This document shows positions 1,433-64,000 of a DNA stretch of 64,000 nt, in pieces. The translations under genes and the position numbers were made by a program. Under the pieces are notes generated by a model, which made no database searches, was not told the origin of the DNA, and worked only from the letters and a program-made list of their open reading frames with translations. The number at the start of each line of letters is the position of its first letter. Position 1 is the first letter of the stretch. The stretch spans positions 965,994 through 1,029,993 of the forward strand of contig OY970365.1 in assembly GCA_963718595.1 (NCBI GenBank), given 5' to 3'. The stretch is from an uncultured Thermoleophilia bacterium. Lineage in GTDB: Bacteria; Actinomycetota; Thermoleophilia; Solirubrobacterales; 70-9.

Positions 1433-2119
1433 CTTCGGGGGGGTTGGTGAGAGGGGTTGGGGGTCTCTCGTGCTCGCTGGATTTTTCGCCCGGACTCTCG
1501 GATAGCTCTAAGACACGGACAAGCGAAAAATTAACGCCGCTGTGCGCGAGAGACCCCCAACCCCTCCCCTCAGAGCACCTCGAAGATTCCGCTAGCTCCC
1601 AGGGTTCGATCGTTTGCAGTTTGGATCGCTCAAGGGTTCGCTCGTTTGCTCTTGAGATCGCTCCAGGGTTCGCTCGTCTGCCGGGAGAGATCGAGCCCGC
1701 TCCCAGCTGGTGAGTTGCCGGTTAGTTCCGCATAGCGGTAACAACCGGCAACTCGTGAAGGAGGTTTTTGGATGAACCTTGGGGCGGATTGGGCCCTCGG
1801 CTTTCTCTTGAGAGGAGATTGCGTCCCTTGGTCGTCTATCTAGAGAGATTCCGTCCCTTGGCGTCTCTTTGCAGAGATGCCGGACCCTGGGCGTCCCTGT
1901 CTAGGGATCACGGACCCTGGTCCGTTCGTCAGCTTCGAGATGGTCCCGGTTCGCGAGGGACGGTGGGGGTGTCCTCCGTACGAGCGGCGTTAATTTTTCG
2001 CTCGTCCGTTCTCGAGAGCTTGCTGTTGTTCGGGGCGAAAAATCCAGCGAGGGAGGAGGACACCCCCACCGTCCCTCCCGGCCCGAGGGCCGGGGAGAAG
2101 TGCAGCGGCCCGAGGTTGG
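1433..2119 (+). repeat. ~690-bp non-coding composite palindromic repeat, copy 1
   Basis: Near-identical over long stretches to 42340-43055 in the same orientation. Internal parts: hairpin 1451-1566, three forward CCAGGGTTCG-type units (1599, 1631, 1663), central hairpin 1712-1754, four reverse units (ending 1831, 1861, 1890, 1920), hairpin 1955-2077. Confidence 0.9.
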
Positions 2120-2152
2120 GGGGATGCGGCGGCCCGAGGTGCGCTCGCTACC

Positions 2153-2428
2153 TCAAAGCGCCTCGATCTTCGCCGCCAGCTCGAAGTCCGACGCCGTCAG
2201 GCCGCCCTCGGAGTGACTCGACAGCGAGACGGTCACCTCGTCCCAGGAGATCTCGAGATCGGGATGGTGGTTCATCTCCTCGGCCGGCGCGACCAGCTTG
2301 TCGACGAAGGCGACCGAGCCGACGAAGTCGCCGCAGGCGAACTCTTTGACGATCGCCTCGCCCGCGCGGCTCCAGCCGGGCAGGTCGGCGAGCTTGGACT
2401 CGATCTCCGCGTCGCTGAGCAGTGCCAT
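2153..2428 (-). CDS. pterin-4-alpha-carbinolamine dehydratase (PCD/DCoH family)
   Basis: 91-aa ORF MALLSDAEIESKLADLPGWSRAGEAIVKEF...EEMNHHPDLEISWDEVTVSLSSH. Size and the NHHPD/W..V block are typical of PCD. Confidence 0.9.
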   Translation of the reverse strand: MALLSDAEIESKLADLPGWSRAGEAIVKEFACGDFVGSVAFVDKLVAPAEEMNHHPDLEISWDEVTVSLSSHSEGGLTASDFELAAKIEAL

Positions 2429-3249: not shown

Positions 3250-4284
3250 CTACGGGGTCATCACGATCTTCAACGCTTCTCGGGCGTCGTACATCGCATA
3301 GGCCTCGGGGGCCTGGTCGAGCGTCATGTGGTGGCTGACCAGCGGCGCCGGGTCGAGCTTGCCGGTCTCCAGCAGGTCGAGGACGTGGTCGACGTGGGCG
3401 ATCACGTTGGCGACGCCGAAGCGCAGCGAGAGGCCCTTCAGCCAGGCCAGGCCCAGGGGGATCTCGACCCGCCCCGCGTAGGCGCCGATCCCGGAGACGG
3501 TGCCGACGTCGCGGCAGAGGCTGACCGCCAGCGCCAGCGGCTCCGGAGCGCCGACCGCGTCGACGGCGACGTCGACGCCGGCGCCGCCGGTACCCGCACG
3601 GACTTCCTTCTTCACGTCCTGCTCGGTCAGGTGCAGCGGCGTCGCCCCGAAGGAGGCGGCCATCGCCAGCCGCTCCTCGACGGTGTCGACGGCGAAGACG
3701 CGGACGGCGCCGGCGGCGAGCGCGCACTGGACCGCACAGAGCCCGACCGGCCCGAGGCCGAGCACGGCAACCGTGTCGCCGGACTTCATCTCGCCGTAGG
3801 AGATCGCGTGGAAGGCGGTGCCCATCACGTCGCCGGCGAAGAGGGCGACGTCGGAGCTGACCGAGTCGGGGACCCGGCGCAGGGTCAAGTTGGCGCGGGG
3901 CACCAGCAGCCGCTCGGCCTGGGCGCCCTGGAGGTTGCCGAGGTTGGTGCCGTGGCCGAAGGTCTGGCCGTTGGTGCAGCGGTGGTAGTCGCCGCGCAGA
4001 CAGGGCGTGCAGGTGGCGCAGGCGGTGTGGAAGCAGCCGACCACGCGGTCGCCGACGGCGACCCGGTTGACGCCGTCCCCGACCGCGAGCACCGTGCCGA
4101 CGAACTCATGGCCGATCGTGAATCCCGGCTCGACCGGGAATCGACCGTGGTAGATGTGGAGGTCCGAGCCGCAGACGGCGCTGGTCTCGACCGCGACGAT
4201 CGCATCGTCGCCGGCGGCCAGCTCCGGCTCCGGTCGCTCCTCGACGCTGACCTGCTCGGGCCCCTGGAAGGTGACGGCGCGCAT
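3250..4284 (-). CDS. zinc-dependent alcohol/formaldehyde dehydrogenase (MDR family)
   Basis: 344 aa. Catalytic-zinc block SAVCGSDLHIYHG...GHEFVG, structural-zinc Cys cluster CATCTPCLRGDYHRC, Rossmann motif VLGLGPVG. Confidence 0.9.
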   Translation of the reverse strand: MRAVTFQGPEQVSVEERPEPELAAGDDAIVAVETSAVCGSDLHIYHGRFPVEPGFTIGHEFVGTVLAVGDGVNRVAVGDRVVGCFHTACATCTPCLRGDYHRCTNGQTFGHGTNLGNLQGAQAERLLVPRANLTLRRVPDSVSSDVALFAGDVMGTAFHAISYGEMKSGDTVAVLGLGPVGLCAVQCALAAGAVRVFAVDTVEERLAMAASFGATPLHLTEQDVKKEVRAGTGGAGVDVAVDAVGAPEPLALAVSLCRDVGTVSGIGAYAGRVEIPLGLAWLKGLSLRFGVANVIAHVDHVLDLLETGKLDPAPLVSHHMTLDQAPEAYAMYDAREALKIVMTP

Positions 4285-4317
4285 GGGCGCAACCGTATCG
4301 CTCCGGGCGCGGTTGCT

Positions 4318-5721
4318 CTAGACGCTGACGCCGGCGACTTGGAAGCGGCTCTGACCGTCGCCGTCGGGGCTGGCGGTCTCGGCGATCCGCGATTCCAGCG
4401 CCAGCTCCTTCTCGAAGTCCGCCGCCTCGCCGTGCTGGAAGGAGACGTCTTTGCCCTCGAGCAGCTCGATGAAGACCTCGACGAAGCGGGCGTCGAGCTG
4501 TTTGCCGGCAACCCGCCGCAGCTCGACGATCGCGTCGTAGCTCGACATCGGCGTCCGGTAGGAGTCGCGGGCAGTCATCACGTCGTAGGTGTCGGCGACG
4601 GAGATGATCCGCGAGAGCTCCGGAATGTCGTCCCCGGCGAGACCGCGCGGATAGCCTTTGCCGTCGATCCGCTCGTGGTGGGCGAGGATGATCTCCGCCA
4701 CCGGGCCATAGCCGTCGAGCGAGGAGACGACGCGGGCGCCCTGCTGGGGGTGGCGCTTGATCAGCATCCAGTCCTCGTCGGTGAGCGGCACGTTGGCCTT
4801 GAGGATGCGGTCGGGAAGGATGAACTTGCCGATGTCGTGCAGCAGCGCGGCAATGTGGACGAGCTCCTCCTCGCGGCGCGAGAAGCCGGCGCGCTGGGCG
4901 ATCGCTCTCGAATAACGGGCGACGGCGGCGGAGTGGCGCGCGGTCATCTGGTCGCGCAGATCGAGGGTGCGCAGCATCGCGCTCAACATCCCGACCTGGA
5001 AGCTGGCCAGCTGCTTGGAGCGCAGCTCCAGTTCCTCGGCCCGCTGCTGAGAGAGCAGCAGCTGACCGAGCAGGTACTGGAAGGTGATCAAGACGACACC
5101 GAAGAGGGCGATCGCCGCGATTCCGATCACGTGGTAGATGAAGGCGACGGCGATCGCCATCATCGCGCTGGCGAACTCGGAGGGCAGGACCGGCGGCAGC
5201 ACCTTCAGCTTCTCGCTGAAGCGGACCCGCTCCAGGTAGGCGCCATAGCCGGCGGTCATCGCGAAGTTGATCGCGAGCACGATCTGGAACAGCGCGAAGA
5301 CGAGCACGTAGAAGATCGGCTCGCCGGCGTCGATCCCGGCTCGCTCGGTCACCTCCATGAAGCCGAGGCCGCCGATCAGCGGGAAGGCGGCGTAGGTGAC
5401 CAGGTTGTTGAGCAGGTCGTGCGGGGCGTCGCGCCAGCGCAGCCACCCGATCGTGATCGTCATCACCCCCAGCAGCGCCGCCGGGGTGCCGCCGAGGAAG
5501 ACCATCGCCAGGACCAGGGCGAGGAAGCTGCCGGAGATCTTGATCTGGGCGTTGGTGGTAATCGCCGTCAGGTCACTGAAGGCGGCGAAGGCAAAGAGGA
5601 CCAGCAGCAGGCCGAAGTTCCAGTTGCCCTGCGGCGCCTCGACGATGGCGACGCCGACGACGACGACCAGCGCCACCGCCTGAAGGGCGATTACTCTCGG
5701 GGTGGGGCGATCGGCGGGCAT
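4318..5721 (-). CDS. membrane-anchored HD-GYP domain protein (probable c-di-GMP phosphodiesterase)
   Basis: 467 aa. About 7 hydrophobic segments at the N-terminus, then HSAAVARY...LLHDIGK...HHERIDGKGYP (HD and GYP signatures). Confidence 0.85.
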   Translation of the reverse strand: MPADRPTPRVIALQAVALVVVVGVAIVEAPQGNWNFGLLLVLFAFAAFSDLTAITTNAQIKISGSFLALVLAMVFLGGTPAALLGVMTITIGWLRWRDAPHDLLNNLVTYAAFPLIGGLGFMEVTERAGIDAGEPIFYVLVFALFQIVLAINFAMTAGYGAYLERVRFSEKLKVLPPVLPSEFASAMMAIAVAFIYHVIGIAAIALFGVVLITFQYLLGQLLLSQQRAEELELRSKQLASFQVGMLSAMLRTLDLRDQMTARHSAAVARYSRAIAQRAGFSRREEELVHIAALLHDIGKFILPDRILKANVPLTDEDWMLIKRHPQQGARVVSSLDGYGPVAEIILAHHERIDGKGYPRGLAGDDIPELSRIISVADTYDVMTARDSYRTPMSSYDAIVELRRVAGKQLDARFVEVFIELLEGKDVSFQHGEAADFEKELALESRIAETASPDGDGQSRFQVAGVSV

Positions 5722-60056: not shown

Positions 60057-61655
60057 TCAGAAGAGCGACATGCCGGTCTCGACCGGCACTTCGACCAGCT
60101 CGGGCTTCGAGGAGGCGAGCGCGGTCTGCAGGGCGGCGCTGACTTCGTCGCGGTCGCGGGCGCGGTGGGCGCTGACGCCGTAGCCCTCGGCGACCGCGGC
60201 GACGTCGAGCGCCGGCAGGTCGAGGCCGGGCGCACCGGTCACCTGCTCGACTTCGGCGAACCACTTGAGGATCGCGTACTCGGAGTTGCGCAGGACCAGG
60301 AAGGTGACCGGGGCGTTGTAGGCGACGGCGCTCCAGAATGCGGTGATCGCGTACTGGGCCGAGCCCTCGCCGAGCACGCAGACGACCGGGCGGTCGGGTT
60401 GGGCGAGTTGGACGCCGACCGAGGCGGCGAGGCCGAAGCCGAGGCCGCCGCCGGCAGCGAAGTAGTAGCTGCCCGGCCGCGAGAGCCGCAGCTGGTTGCG
60501 CAGGGCGAGCGTGCTGGAGGGGGACTCGAGGACGACGATCGCGTCCTCGGGCAGGACCTCGCGCAGGGCGCTGTGGACGGTCGAGGCGTTGAGCGGGTCG
60601 GTGGCCGGGATTTCGCCCGGGCCCGGGTTCGGCTCCGGCGCCGTGCGGGTCGACTCGGGAACGGCGGCCAGCAGCGCCCCCAGGGTCAGCGCCACGTCGG
60701 CGACGATCGCGTCGCCCATCGGCGCCCTCACCGCCTCGTCCGGGTCGCTGGTGATCGCGACCAGCTTCGCCCCCTCCGGCAGCAGCGGCCCCGGGATGTA
60801 CGGGTAGTACGGGAAGACGGAGCTGCCGACGACGAGGATCAGGTCGTGGCCCTCCAGCGTCTGCCCGGCCGGGCCGATCGCCGGCGGCAGCACGCCGCGG
60901 TAGTTCGGGTGGCCCTCGGGAAAGCCGAGGCGGTGGCCGCCGGTCGCGGGCGAGGCCCAGACCGGCAGGCGCTGGCGCTCGGCGAGGCCGACGGCCAGAT
61001 CCCAGGCGCCGCTGGTGTCGATGTCGGGGCCGGCGACGAGGACCGGGTTGGCGGCGGCGTCGAGCGCCGCGGCGAGGGCGCGAACCGCCTCCGGGTCGGC
61101 GCCGGCCCGGCCGCTCACCTTGCGCTCGATCGCGGCGCGGGCGTCGGCCTCGTCGACCTCGGCGTCCCAGTCGTCCATCGGAATCGAGACGAAGACGGGG
61201 CCCCGCGGCGGCAGCCCGGCGAGATGGGCGCCGTGGGCAAGGGCCAGCGGCACGTCCTGGGCGCGCGGCGGCTCGAAGGACCACTTGACCAGCGGGTGCG
61301 GCATCCGCGTCGCGTCGCGGTTGGTCAGGTTCGCCTGCAGAGTGACCTGGGCCCGCGCCTGCTGGCCGGCGGTGATCAGCAACGGCGAGTGGTTGGCCTG
61401 GGCGTTGAAGATCGCGCCCATCGCGTTGCCGACCCCCGGCGCCGTGTGCAGGTTGACGACGGTGGTCCTGCCCGAGGCCTGGGCGAATCCGTCGGCCATC
61501 CCGACCACGACCGCCTCCTGCAGGCCGAGCACGTAGTTGAAGTCGGCCGGGTAGTCGGCCAGCATCGGCAGCTCGGTCGAGCCCGGGTTGCCGAAGATCG
61601 TCGTCATCCCGTGGGCGCGGAAGAGGTCGAACGTTGCGTCTCTGACTGTAAGCAT
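60057..61655 (-). CDS. thiamine-diphosphate-dependent decarboxylase (benzoylformate decarboxylase-like)
   Basis: Internal ATG (cat 61653-61655). MLTVRDATFDLFRAHGMTTIFGNPGSTELP...NLHTAPGVGNAMG...; C-terminal ThDP motif GEGSAQY...N. Confidence 0.9.
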   Translation of the reverse strand: MLTVRDATFDLFRAHGMTTIFGNPGSTELPMLADYPADFNYVLGLQEAVVVGMADGFAQASGRTTVVNLHTAPGVGNAMGAIFNAQANHSPLLITAGQQARAQVTLQANLTNRDATRMPHPLVKWSFEPPRAQDVPLALAHGAHLAGLPPRGPVFVSIPMDDWDAEVDEADARAAIERKVSGRAGADPEAVRALAAALDAAANPVLVAGPDIDTSGAWDLAVGLAERQRLPVWASPATGGHRLGFPEGHPNYRGVLPPAIGPAGQTLEGHDLILVVGSSVFPYYPYIPGPLLPEGAKLVAITSDPDEAVRAPMGDAIVADVALTLGALLAAVPESTRTAPEPNPGPGEIPATDPLNASTVHSALREVLPEDAIVVLESPSSTLALRNQLRLSRPGSYYFAAGGGLGFGLAASVGVQLAQPDRPVVCVLGEGSAQYAITAFWSAVAYNAPVTFLVLRNSEYAILKWFAEVEQVTGAPGLDLPALDVAAVAEGYGVSAHRARDRDEVSAALQTALASSKPELVEVPVETGMSLF

Positions 61656-61743
61656 CGGCACAAGCCTATCCGCAGCGGGAGAACGACTGAGCATTGCCTC
61701 GCCCCCAATTCAAGGCCGCGCGATCGGTGTCGATAGCGAGAGG

Positions 61744-62427
61744 GTGATTCGCTACGTAGCCATCATCTGCGCCGCCGCTCTGTGCCTGGCCGCGGGCGCC
61801 GCCGGCACCGCCGCGGCGGAACCGCCGCCGAGCGAAACCAGCCTCGTCTACGGCCCCAGCTCGATCGTCCCGATCCCGACCTCGATCCCGCACGAAGCGG
61901 GCGACATGGTCGACAAGCGAATCGTCCCCGACCTGCGCTGGATCGCCCAGCGGTACCCGATCTACGTCACCGACGGCTACTCCGGGCCGCTGCCCGACGG
62001 CGGCTGGTCGGGTTGCCACGGCTGCCACGTCGTCGGCTCCGACCACTACAACGGGCTGGCGGTCGACATCGTGCCGCTCGTTCCCAGCTCCAGCTGCGAC
62101 GCCAGATGGACCGCGATCACCCGCCTCGCTCTCTGGGCCGAGCCGAAACAGAACCGGCCGGTGCTCCCCTTCCGCTGGGTCGGCTACAACGGCGACGTCG
62201 CCCACGGCTGCGGCCACCACCTCCACCTCTCCTGGAACCACGCCACGGCGCGCCGCTACGCGCTTGCCGAATGGGTCGAAGTCTTTCCCGCCTCCGGGCT
62301 CGAAAACGTCAAACAGACCCGGACCAAGAAGCGGGTCCCGAAGACTCCGAAGGCGCCCGCCGGCCCCAGCGGCGGCATCTCCCAGGCAGCCACAGGCGGC
62401 CTCTCACCTCGCGGCACCGGCGACTGA
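61744..62427 (+). CDS. secreted LAS-superfamily zinc metallopeptidase (peptidase M15-like)
   Basis: GTG 61744 within track ORF 61588..62427. Signal peptide, SDHYNGLAVDI (SxHxxGxAxD) and GHHLHLSW (HxH) metal-ligand motifs. Confidence 0.65.
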   Translation: MIRYVAIICAAALCLAAGAAGTAAAEPPPSETSLVYGPSSIVPIPTSIPHEAGDMVDKRIVPDLRWIAQRYPIYVTDGYSGPLPDGGWSGCHGCHVVGSDHYNGLAVDIVPLVPSSSCDARWTAITRLALWAEPKQNRPVLPFRWVGYNGDVAHGCGHHLHLSWNHATARRYALAEWVEVFPASGLENVKQTRTKKRVPKTPKAPAGPSGGISQAATGGLSPRGTGD

Positions 62428-62467
62428 GCCCTACGCGCGATTACCTCAAAGGCTGTAGAAATAGTCG

Positions 62468-63601
62468 GTGCCCGACCAGCCAATACGGAAGAGAGCCGCT
62501 TCGGCACCAGACGTGCGTGAACAGGTAGAGCGACCGCCGATCCTGCCACGCAGTGTCTCGATCGGCATCTACGTAGTTGCAGCGGTGGCGACGGTGTGCG
62601 CACTGGCCGTGAACATCGCGAGCCCCAGTGGCTGGAAGGTGGACGGGTTCACCCTCGCGCTTCTCGGGCTGCTGATCCTAATTCCCATCGCCGAGCGGGT
62701 GCGGAAAGTGAAGGTGACGAAATTCGCCGAAATCGACGTCGGCGAGAAGGTCATCGAGGAAATCGAGAAGGTCGGAGCGCTGGTCGAGGACGAGCTGGTT
62801 GCACGCGAGGATCGGGCCGAAGCAGAGGAAGCCGAGGACGCCATCGACGAGACCGAACAAGACCTGCGGACGGTCGAGCGCCACCGTGCGAACCCGAGGA
62901 CGATCAGGCAAATCGTGTGGGTCGACGACAACCCCGACGGCAACCGGATAGAGATCGCCGTGCTCAGACGGCGCTTCAAGGTCGAGACGGCGCGATCGAC
63001 GGCGGCGGGCCTGGCGGCGATCGGCGATCCCGACGAGACGGCGGTGATCAGCGACGCCGTGAGAGGCGAAGCCGGCGAGAGCAACCTCCGGGCGGGGCTC
63101 GATCTGATCGAAGCGCTTCAGGATCGCCACCCCCAGGTCCCGGTTTACGTTTACTGCGGTCAGGAGACCGCCGAAAAGTACGCACAGCCGCTGAAGGACG
63201 GCGGCGCCAAGGTCGTCACCGCTTCATTCGACGAGCTCAGCCGCGTGATTCGCGCCGACGCGCGAGCCAGCTTCGAAGCAGAGGTGGGCGCGCTGCTGGA
63301 GGCGGTGGGGGCAGTCTCCGAACAGGAGGCCGGCATCGATTTTCTCCTCGACCTGCCCGGCGTGCGGGTCGCGGTCGAGGCAAAGGACTACCGGCGAACC
63401 CCCAAGGCCGCGGCCCTCGACCGGACCATGGACTTGCTCGCGGAGACGATCCGCCTGGACAAGGCGGAGGCCGGACTAGTCGTCGTCCCCAAGGACGTCT
63501 TTGACCCCGCCCAGCGTGAGCGAGCGAAGGCGCGGGGAGTGCGATTGGTCGCGGTGGGTGAGCTCCTCCAGGAGCTGAAGGCGCTCAGCCGCCCCGACTG
63601 A
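62468..63601 (+). CDS. membrane-anchored protein: 2 TM + acidic coiled-coil + receiver (CheY)-like domain + Mrr-type PD-(D/E)xK nuclease-like domain
   Basis: 377 aa. TM segments IGIYVVAAVATVCALAV and FTLALLGLLILIPIA. REC-like IVWVDDNPDGN...AVISD...VYVYCG...GAKVV. C-terminus SFEAEVGALLEAVG...GIDFLL...VAVEAKDYRR...AGLVVV...VRLVAVGELL matches the Mrr_cat pattern (FE..V..LL, G.D, E.K). Confidence 0.7.
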   Translation: MPDQPIRKRAASAPDVREQVERPPILPRSVSIGIYVVAAVATVCALAVNIASPSGWKVDGFTLALLGLLILIPIAERVRKVKVTKFAEIDVGEKVIEEIEKVGALVEDELVAREDRAEAEEAEDAIDETEQDLRTVERHRANPRTIRQIVWVDDNPDGNRIEIAVLRRRFKVETARSTAAGLAAIGDPDETAVISDAVRGEAGESNLRAGLDLIEALQDRHPQVPVYVYCGQETAEKYAQPLKDGGAKVVTASFDELSRVIRADARASFEAEVGALLEAVGAVSEQEAGIDFLLDLPGVRVAVEAKDYRRTPKAAALDRTMDLLAETIRLDKAEAGLVVVPKDVFDPAQRERAKARGVRLVAVGELLQELKALSRPD

Positions 63602-63630
63602 TCGAACGAACCCGCCATAGGATTGGCGGA

Positions 63631-64000
63631 ATGGATGCACGGCAACTGATTGCGCTCGCCTGCGCTGCGGCAGCAGTGGCGCTCGCCGGATGCGGCGGCG
63701 GGCGCGACGACGATGCGCAGACGCCGGTCGCCTGCCTGGAAGGCTCGGGGGCGTACGTGCGGGCGCTGGCGAGCGCACCCGGCAAGGTGCTGGTCGGCGA
63801 GACCCCGATCGGCTCCTGTCTGACCGAGAACCAGAGCGGCGGTGAGCTGGCCACGGTCGGGGAAGCGATGATCGACGCCGCCACCGAACTGAACGCCGAG
63901 GCCCGTGAAGACCCTGGCGCCCAGGCGACGTTGGAGCTCGGCTACCTGGTCGGCGCCGCGAAGCGCGGCGCCGAGGAGACCGAAGGCATCCACACCGACC
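63631..64000 (+). CDS. hypothetical lipoprotein, N-terminal part (runs off the right edge)
   Basis: Own translation: MDARQLIALACAAAAVALAGCGGGRDDDAQTPVACLEGSGAYVRAL... with an LAGC lipobox. No stop before the window end. Confidence 0.5.
   Translation, partial: MDARQLIALACAAAAVALAGCGGGRDDDAQTPVACLEGSGAYVRALASAPGKVLVGETPIGSCLTENQSGGELATVGEAMIDAATELNAEAREDPGAQATLELGYLVGAAKRGAEETEGIHTD

Follow-up and report, generated by a model that had tools for sequence, protein, structure and literature searches.

Sequence and model analysis of a predicted membrane-anchored protein joining a receiver-like domain to an Mrr-type nuclease domain in an uncultured Thermoleophilia bacterium

Introduction

Why would a bacterium hold a domain with a restriction endonuclease (REase) fold at its membrane, behind a domain resembling the receivers of two-component systems? 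The question is raised by a single gene (62468..63601, forward strand, 377 aa) in a 64,000-nucleotide stretch of DNA, here called the window, from an uncultured Thermoleophilia bacterium (GenBank assembly GCA_963718595.1, contig OY970365.1, positions 965,994 to 1,029,993), whose genome consists of one contig of 2.86 Mb. The gene is an open frame in the list of open reading frames (ORFs) and in the translation; coordinates are window positions throughout, and all parts of the gene lie on the forward strand. A first-pass annotation, made from the sequence, had divided the product into two transmembrane (TM) helices, a Glu/Asp-rich probable coiled coil, a CheY-like fold and an Mrr-type PD-(D/E)xK nuclease region, and had left its role between a signal-activated nuclease effector and a DNA-binding sensor with an inactive nuclease fold. 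All motifs that it cited were recovered from the translation of 62468-63601, and the four-part layout of two TM helices, acidic linker, CheY fold and Mrr_cat nuclease with D...E.K residues held in each of its parts when these were tested separately.

The explanation that we favour, which is possible but falls a little short of probable, is that the gene encodes a membrane-tethered, auto-inhibited Mrr-type endonuclease that would act by itself, as an accessory defence against foreign DNA from phages or conjugation, and would be switched through its receiver-like domain. We favour it because the catalytic triad is kept in the clade to which the protein belongs, a helix joins receiver to nuclease in the structure model, the membrane module is conserved, the gene has an accessory, solo distribution associated with mobile elements, and the same receiver subfamily keeps the company of conflict-type domains in other proteins.

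The nuclease domain and its candidate catalytic residues

The nuclease domain (residues 263-377, 63254..63598) was delimited by Pfam, profile search and AlphaFold2 (AF2) models searched with Foldseek. The protein passed the Pfam cut-off for Mrr_cat (PF04471; 27.0 bits against 21, E=5e-6) over residues 268-368, corresponding to profile positions 8-113 of 115, and the same family was matched by 16 of 44 relatives. A profile built from 22 C-termini of the family matched the Mrr-type nuclease domain of LlaBIII (type ISP, PDB 4xqk; E=1.8e-4), pairing the family's GvD...vEaK with GVD...IQAK, followed at weak E-values by Hjc, Cas4 and AF1548. The domain modelled separately reached a pLDDT of 91.9, and its Foldseek neighbours in the PDB (NucS/EndoMS, AF1548, AspBHI, Ecl18kI, Card1/Cdn1, EcoO109I and Cap4) are all PD-(D/E)xK nucleases, matched with a probability of ~1.0 and TMq of 0.5-0.63 but with modest E-values of ~1e-3; the modelled core has the alpha-beta-beta-beta-alpha-beta topology of this fold. 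The motifs of this part are FEAEVGALLEAVG (residues 269-281), GIDFLL (289-294), VAVEAKDYRR (301-310), AGLVVV (335-340) and VRLVAVGELL (358-367).

The protein contains the whole set of candidate catalytic residues, namely E270 in helix alpha1 of the domain, D291 (63338-63340) and E304-A-K306 (E304, 63377-63379; K306, 63383-63385). On profile, modelled fold and residues the domain is a member of the Mrr_cat family and is predicted to cleave DNA. The first-pass assignment to the Mrr type therefore stands on the Pfam score above cut-off, the LlaBIII profile match and the Foldseek neighbours, and the D...E.K residues on which it depended are intact and aligned with the LlaBIII motif. In the full-length AF2 model a continuous helix (residues 254-280) comprises both receiver alpha5 and nuclease alpha1, the latter bearing E270, and it is plausible from the model that this helix is a route for allosteric control.

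Relatives were collected by an exhaustive search of 1.84 billion representatives, which gave 17 hits below 1e-30 and 106 below 1e-10 (a word-based search with the single protein had retrieved only two); conservation counts given here refer to an alignment of 44 relatives. Among the best 150, as counted from match ranges, ~50 combine receiver and nuclease behind one or two TM helices; most others are ~220 aa long and have the receiver as their only domain after a TM helix and the same beta-hairpin and helix. Ten representative clusters that were looked up had 1-2 members each. Named relatives came from Kribbella and Mycolicibacterium and carry the labels 'response regulator', 'CheY-like chemotaxis protein' or 'hypothetical protein', so that the family has generic names and not an annotated function, which the first-pass annotation had considered possible.

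Conservation of the catalytic residues is uneven across this family. D291 is present in all 44 sequences and E304 in 36, whereas at the position of K306 19 sequences have Lys, 8 have Arg and the remaining 17 have other residues, and the Kribbella/Mycolicibacterium clade (~400 aa) has E-V-A/G in place of ExK. The complete E270...D291...E304-A-K306 set is kept in a clade comprising the window protein, P0003-P0005, P0008, P0009, P0011, P0012 and the protein of locus L011. Overall identity within this clade is only 35-50%, and retention of the triad at such distances argues for selection on catalysis there.

The same counts are the main ground for a different explanation, in which the protein would be a non-catalytic or weakly catalytic membrane signalling protein whose REase fold binds DNA or a ligand or mediates oligomerisation, so that DNA is tethered or sensed and not destroyed. 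Besides the frequent loss of the Lys, two relatives weakly match the Pfam families NA-iREase1 and NA-iREase3, which recalls the 'inactive REase' domains on NACHT proteins; the nuclease is absent from most relatives; and the receiver pocket (the Asp pair, the acceptor Asp, R199 and T251) is conserved above the nuclease triad across the family. Against these observations stand the invariance of D291 and, in the window copy and its close clade, the complete E...D...ExK set with an Mrr_cat score above cut-off, and we consider this explanation unlikely for the window protein, if worth keeping in view. The 'inactive nuclease fold' proposed in the first-pass annotation would accordingly fit the large sister clade, in which the catalytic Lys has been lost, but not the window copy with its intact triad.

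The receiver-like domain

The receiver-like domain (residues 144-262, 62897..63253) was recognised by Foldseek, hhalign and the Pfam hits of relatives. By itself the 377-aa protein stayed below the gathering score of Pfam Response_reg (PF00072; 16.9 bits against a cut-off of 30.2), and 24 of the 44 relatives matched this family with a best E-value of 1e-10; four proteins with the same receiver subfamily in other architectures (P0083, P0120, P0134 and P0062) scored 50-65 bits. The full-length AF2 model has a mean pLDDT of 78.8, exceeding 90 in the receiver domain, and its top Foldseek matches in the PDB were receivers only (PmrA, Spo0F, NtrX, CheY, PhoB and others; TMt 0.7-0.79, root-mean-square deviation (rmsd) 3.2-3.9). 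The modelled domain thus has the (beta-alpha)5 CheY fold, and the CheY-like fold read from the motifs VWVDDNPDGN (residues 150-159), AVISD (192-196), VYVYCG (226-231) and GAKVV (246-250) is borne out by the match to solved receiver domains and by the hits of relatives.

Alignments to CheY (hhalign) and to NtrX place the acidic pair D153/D154 (62924-62929) at CheY D12/D13 and the acceptor D196 (63053-63055) at D57, with C230 at T87 and A252 at K109. The three Asp residues are conserved in 43, 41 and 40 of the 44 sequences, respectively, and stay nearly invariant when 20 further sequences of the family are included. The switch Thr/Ser has no match, since C230 occupies its position and the family has A, C, T, S, I or Y there. 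A conserved receiver Lys is characteristic of phospho-accepting receivers, in which the Lys and the Thr couple phosphorylation to output; at the K109 position Lys was never found in the 44 and the 20 further sequences, A252 being present here and A, S, T, N, P, D or W elsewhere. Near-invariant residues that are specific to the family are W151, P156, N159, R199 (three residues after the acceptor), G210 and T251. On these residues the domain is an atypical orphan receiver, with a metal/phosphoryl pocket that is kept, classical switch residues that are replaced and no linked kinase. That the Asp triad, R199 and T251 are nearly invariant argues for a ligand still binding in the pocket.

The nearest gene in the genome with a kinase ATPase domain (HATPase_c) lies ~176 kb from the nuclease gene, and no histidine kinase was linked to the gene in the nine relatives whose contexts were inspected; a kinase encoded at a distance may nevertheless act on the domain. 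Without the Lys, the Thr and a kinase nearby, classical phosphotransfer to the domain is doubtful. Of the receiver control proposed in the first-pass annotation, the acidic pocket and the acceptor Asp are thus in place, but control by classical phosphotransfer is not supported, the switch Thr and the Lys being missing across the aligned family and the kinase not being nearby.

These observations also bear on the possibility that the protein is an ordinary orphan response regulator, phosphorylated by a distant kinase or by acetyl phosphate, and that its nuclease output has a housekeeping task, for example in the uptake or repair of DNA or in its turnover during development. D153, D154 and D196 are retained as this would require, NCBI labels relatives 'response regulator', and the genome holds 11 HATPase_c genes, some of which are perhaps kinases without partners. 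The family nevertheless lacks the Lys typical of phospho-accepting receivers and varies at the Thr position, and a kinase is linked in none of the nine contexts. The gene is also absent from nearly all genomes of the same genus, including the closest, which makes a housekeeping role in a core process unlikely; taken together, we give an ordinary orphan regulator only a slim chance.

The membrane hairpin and the linker

The two TM helices announced in the first-pass annotation are supported by hydropathy, by the AF2 helices and by their conservation in relatives: TM helix 1 spans residues ~29-51 (62552..62620; AF2 helix 28-50) and TM helix 2 residues ~59-76 (62642..62695; AF2 helix 60-75), and they are connected by a short outer loop of 8 residues. 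The orientation of TM segments is commonly predicted from the positive-inside rule; Arg/Lys-rich stretches are found at the N-terminus and in the segment after TM helix 2, and therefore both ends of the protein should be cytoplasmic. P73 is invariant throughout the 44-sequence alignment (mean identity 26%), which has only two other invariant columns; D59, L65 and P73 are invariant in a second alignment of relatives (A3), and W56, V58 and D59 are invariant in 3 close relatives. With P73 invariant and D59 and L65 nearly so, the hairpin is, on its conservation, probably more than a mere anchor.

Behind the membrane, a juxtamembrane beta-hairpin (residues 80-90) and an acidic helical or disordered linker (91-143) together occupy 62696..62896, as judged by the AF2 model and by composition. 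The strands of the hairpin are residues 80-83 and 87-90, and residues 91-124 are modelled as a helix with low confidence (pLDDT ~50-60). The linker is the least conserved part of the protein and is Pro/Ser-rich in relatives. Of the Glu/Asp-rich coiled coil that had been proposed, the acidic composition is confirmed (19 Asp/Glu among 53 residues), but the coiled coil is unproven given the low pLDDT and the poor conservation.

A conserved hairpin with an invariant Pro and a near-invariant Asp would also suit an abortive-infection or suicide effector, in which an insult to the envelope, for example phage-induced depolarisation, activates the nuclease, perhaps after release from the membrane, so that the cell's own chromosome is degraded and the cell dies before phage release. 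Non-specific destruction of DNA by REase effectors under the control of a sensor is well known; Card1, Cdn1 and Cap4 are among the Foldseek matches of the nuclease-domain model, and the accessory distribution of the gene is likewise consistent with such a role. A permanent tether with a stalk of ~70 residues would, however, restrict the reach to the nucleoid, and neither a protease site nor a release mechanism is evident, making a suicide effector rather improbable.

Distribution of the gene and its locus

In this soil actinobacterium the gene is rare, and its presence varies between strains. A full-length copy was not found in 36 + 7 genomes of the same genus, ~290 others of the order or ~400 of the phylum (~740 other actinobacterial genomes). 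Relative to the closest genome of the genus (G014, locus L017) it constitutes a single-gene presence/absence polymorphism (62431..63612): the flanks align by blastn at 92% and 88% identity on the two sides, and in G014 ~33 bp separate the stop of the upstream peptidase-like gene from the ATG of the downstream lipoprotein gene. The junction of the indel in this comparison showed neither a target-site duplication nor a repeat. Three metagenomic relatives carry the gene (L001, L002 and L011), at the same site in L001 and L011, L002 being too short to judge. Compared with L001 and L011, the nuclease product of the window has 46-47% amino acid identity, the secreted neighbours 55-66% and a thiamine pyrophosphate (TPP) enzyme 85%. 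From the same-site carriers, the near-absence elsewhere and these identities, the gene is probably an old accessory gene that most genomes have lost, or that has been exchanged by recombination, and it changes at a somewhat higher rate than the genes beside it.

The contexts of seven distant relatives (L006-L008, L010 and L027-L029) contain solo genes in unrelated neighbourhoods, and neither a conserved partner nor a histidine kinase was found in these seven. Three of the loci have a resolvase nearby, one has an integrase together with a type IV secretion system (T4SS) coupling protein, and two have IS21 or IS110.

The upstream flank of the window gene is a secreted peptidase-like gene (61588..62427, forward strand, as the listed ORF; the true start lies further in, near the signal peptide), whose product gave no Pfam hit at E <= 0.01. 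The downstream flank is a lipoprotein gene (63631..64000, forward strand, 165 aa) that runs past the end of the window to G000:1030118 and is present in 14 of 15 genomes of the genus. The two are paired in every locus of the genus that was examined, with or without the nuclease gene, and are directly adjacent where it is absent. They are genus-core genes outside any system with the nuclease gene, and a functional operon of the three was rejected because in each same-genus locus without the nuclease gene its two neighbours lie side by side. The first-pass remark that the neighbours give no clear system context agrees with this picture of genus-core genes bordering a single-gene indel.

Proposed mode of action

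In the favoured explanation, of a tethered and auto-inhibited endonuclease, the two-helix hairpin with both ends in the cytoplasm would hold the protein at the inner face of the membrane, and the juxtamembrane beta-hairpin and the acidic helical stalk would lead to the atypical receiver domain. This domain would act as the switch and might be set in one of two ways, either by metal or phosphoryl binding at the D153/D154/D196 pocket, with R199 and T251 possibly replacing the missing Lys and Thr, or by a change relayed from the conserved membrane module. A change in the pocket or the membrane would alter the dimerisation or packing of the receiver and so free the nuclease, which would then cut DNA near the membrane, with the tether keeping it off the nucleoid.

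Several observations weigh against this explanation. The receiver lacks the Lys and the Thr that couple phosphorylation to output and has no kinase nearby. The commonest relatives are membrane-anchored receivers without any nuclease, and ~40% of the 44 relatives lack the catalytic Lys (17, in addition to the 8 with Arg) while the receiver pocket is nearly invariant, and therefore the common function of the family may be other than DNA cleavage. The two immediate neighbours are genus-core genes, and the products flanking the gene are themselves fairly diverged between carriers, so that the nuclease gene evolves only modestly fast. Searches of plasmid and phage collections with the protein (tblastn) found no copy, and the PADLOC models gave no match to it.

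Conflict-type partners are fused to the same receiver subfamily in other proteins, namely a KAP P-loop NTPase in this genome and, in a few large proteins, trypsin and FGE-sulfatase, TPR, or GAF and trypsin. A related idea, in our view something of a long shot, is that TM hairpin, beta-hairpin, helix and Lys-less receiver together make up a kinase-independent one-component membrane sensor, whose pocket would be re-used, with R199 and T251 in place of Lys and Thr, such that a membrane or envelope cue activates the attached effector. Many proteins of ~220 aa consist of this module by itself; in the window protein it is fused to a nuclease. If the idea is true, a receiver domain would here be wired in a way not described before, and the single gene would encode a new immune sensor-effector.

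Comparison with known systems

Two characterised systems share ideas of design with the window protein. SNIPE (PD-lambda-1) is a membrane-bound GIY-YIG nuclease that cleaves phage DNA at injection; its tether prevents self-cleavage and places the nuclease at the site of DNA entry, the membrane-bound form is auto-inhibited, and its homologues have 1 or 2 TM helices (Saxton et al., Nature 2026, PMC13190303). Both are encoded by a single gene and run from a membrane anchor at the N-terminus through a cytoplasmic middle domain to a nuclease at the C-terminus, but the two are not homologous, SNIPE consisting of DUF4041 and GIY-YIG and the window protein of a receiver-like domain and an Mrr_cat PD-(D/E)xK domain; neither DUF4041 nor GIY-YIG was found in it by Pfam. 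In the Detocs system, DtcC couples a receiver to an effector whose variants include REase and TM types (Rousset et al. 2023, bioRxiv 10.1101/2023.01.24.525353); its receiver immediately precedes the cell-damaging effector, which in some variants has the REase fold, and in this it resembles the window protein. Detocs uses two-component parts for defence, which for the window protein holds by analogy only. It differs in being a three-gene operon with the kinase DtcA and the buffer receiver DtcB, whereas the window gene is solo, with neither a kinase nor a second receiver linked; its REase is PF18742 as against PF04471; and the window receiver lacks the Lys and the Thr and is membrane-anchored. 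On domain content the window protein is a member of neither SNIPE nor Detocs.

Escherichia coli Mrr, other type IV restriction enzymes with Mrr_cat, and LlaBIII belong to the same catalytic family, with an aligned D...(E/Q)xK motif, but the window protein has a TM hairpin and a receiver-like domain instead of Mrr_N or helicase/methylase modules. The Mrr_N winged-helix domain reads modified DNA in enzymes of the EcoKMrr type; neither Mrr_N nor another DNA-binding Pfam domain was found in the window protein, which on its predicted domains is not an EcoKMrr-type enzyme. Card1/Can2, Cdn1 and Cap4 (CRISPR type III, CBASS), structural neighbours of the nuclease domain, likewise place a Rossmann-like sensor domain before a PD-(D/E)xK nuclease, but their CARF/SAVED sensors bind cyclic oligonucleotides, and the proteins are soluble and need a signal-making partner. 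Atypical, phosphorylation-independent receivers have also partly lost the canonical receiver quintet, and the NACHT-associated inactive REases (PF22722/PF22739) parallel the loss of the catalytic Lys in the sister clade; the window copy differs from both in keeping all three Asp residues and an intact nuclease triad.

The first-pass annotation had not recognised the architecture from characterised systems. This is correct for the exact fusion, of which no description was found in the literature on membrane-anchored response regulators and receiver-Mrr fusions, nuclease outputs not being mentioned in Galperin's archaeal census either, but not for the ideas behind it, for which SNIPE (membrane tether) and Detocs DtcC (receiver-REase) are characterised analogues. 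The receiver-type middle domain is a new element of membrane-anchored nuclease design. If active, the protein would show that a 'nuclease at the membrane' defence can be built independently of the GIY-YIG proteins of the SNIPE type, and would be the first such protein with a receiver-type switch in the same polypeptide and no kinase. At 1.1 kb the gene is a compact candidate for a regulated, membrane-confined DNase. The clade with the intact triad and the sister clade that lost it, having the receiver pocket in common, offer a natural experiment that could reveal what a Lys-less receiver senses.

Start codon and base composition

The product of the gene caller (P0002, 335 aa) starts at 62594 and cuts into TM helix 1, so that the automated annotation masks the two-helix topology. 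Homologues cover residues 24-376 of the 377-aa protein and residues 24-42 are conserved among them, which contradicts the start at 62594 and indicates a true start upstream. The candidates are GTG at 62468 (377 aa) and GTG at 62513 (362 aa), both of which keep TM helix 1. Derivation of the 15-residue N-terminal extension from the in-frame palindromic elements of this genome was ruled out, no such inverted repeat being present, and a promoter and terminator scan yielded nothing usable. GC content is 0.66 in the gene against 0.69 for the whole window, and GC at third codon positions (GC3) is 0.81 against 0.85-0.95 in neighbouring genes.

Additional observations

Among the members of the family, those with a receiver only seem to be the most frequent. 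In one actinobacterial family, a match to the membrane-anchored receiver module without the nuclease region was found in 9 of 21 sampled genomes, all in genus g114 (loci L030-L034). The one locus that was read (L031, ~1492-2280, minus strand) encodes ~260 aa with a TM helix, a RAFTVRIGGVELSVEDA hairpin, a Pro-rich linker and an LWVDDDP receiver.

The KAP-type protein of the window's own genome (G000:C1:713012-714811, minus strand, 601 aa) joins a P-loop NTPase (GIEGAWGAGKST...VFVDDLDRC) to a C-terminal Lys-less receiver (LWLDDEVERN...SDISR). Such a gene also lies at locus L015 (1432-3237, minus strand), and the protein is rare, occurring in 1 of 15 other genomes of the genus. Its role as an obligatory partner of the nuclease protein through receiver-receiver pairing was unsupported, since it is present in G002, where the nuclease gene is absent, and was not found in the incomplete L011 genome, where the nuclease gene is present.

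At the locus itself, the upstream secreted protein has H..G.A.D and H.H motifs (SDHYNGLAVDI, GHHLHLSW), as in zinc peptidases of the LAS/VanY type. In L001 an extra gene (3848-4741, minus strand), absent from the window's genome, directly follows the lipoprotein gene and encodes DUF4365 (PD-(D/E)xK-like) with a C-terminal retropepsin-like DTGAD motif; variable genes may have a small hotspot at this site.

A search of a viral structure library returned only separate receiver or REase matches. Several uncultured siphovirus proteins annotated as restriction endonuclease (A0A8S5URS9, A0A8S5QLE7 and A0A8S5NPB8; 270-330 aa) align over most of the full-length model, with very high rmsd, and may represent a phage-borne combination of a helical stalk with a REase.

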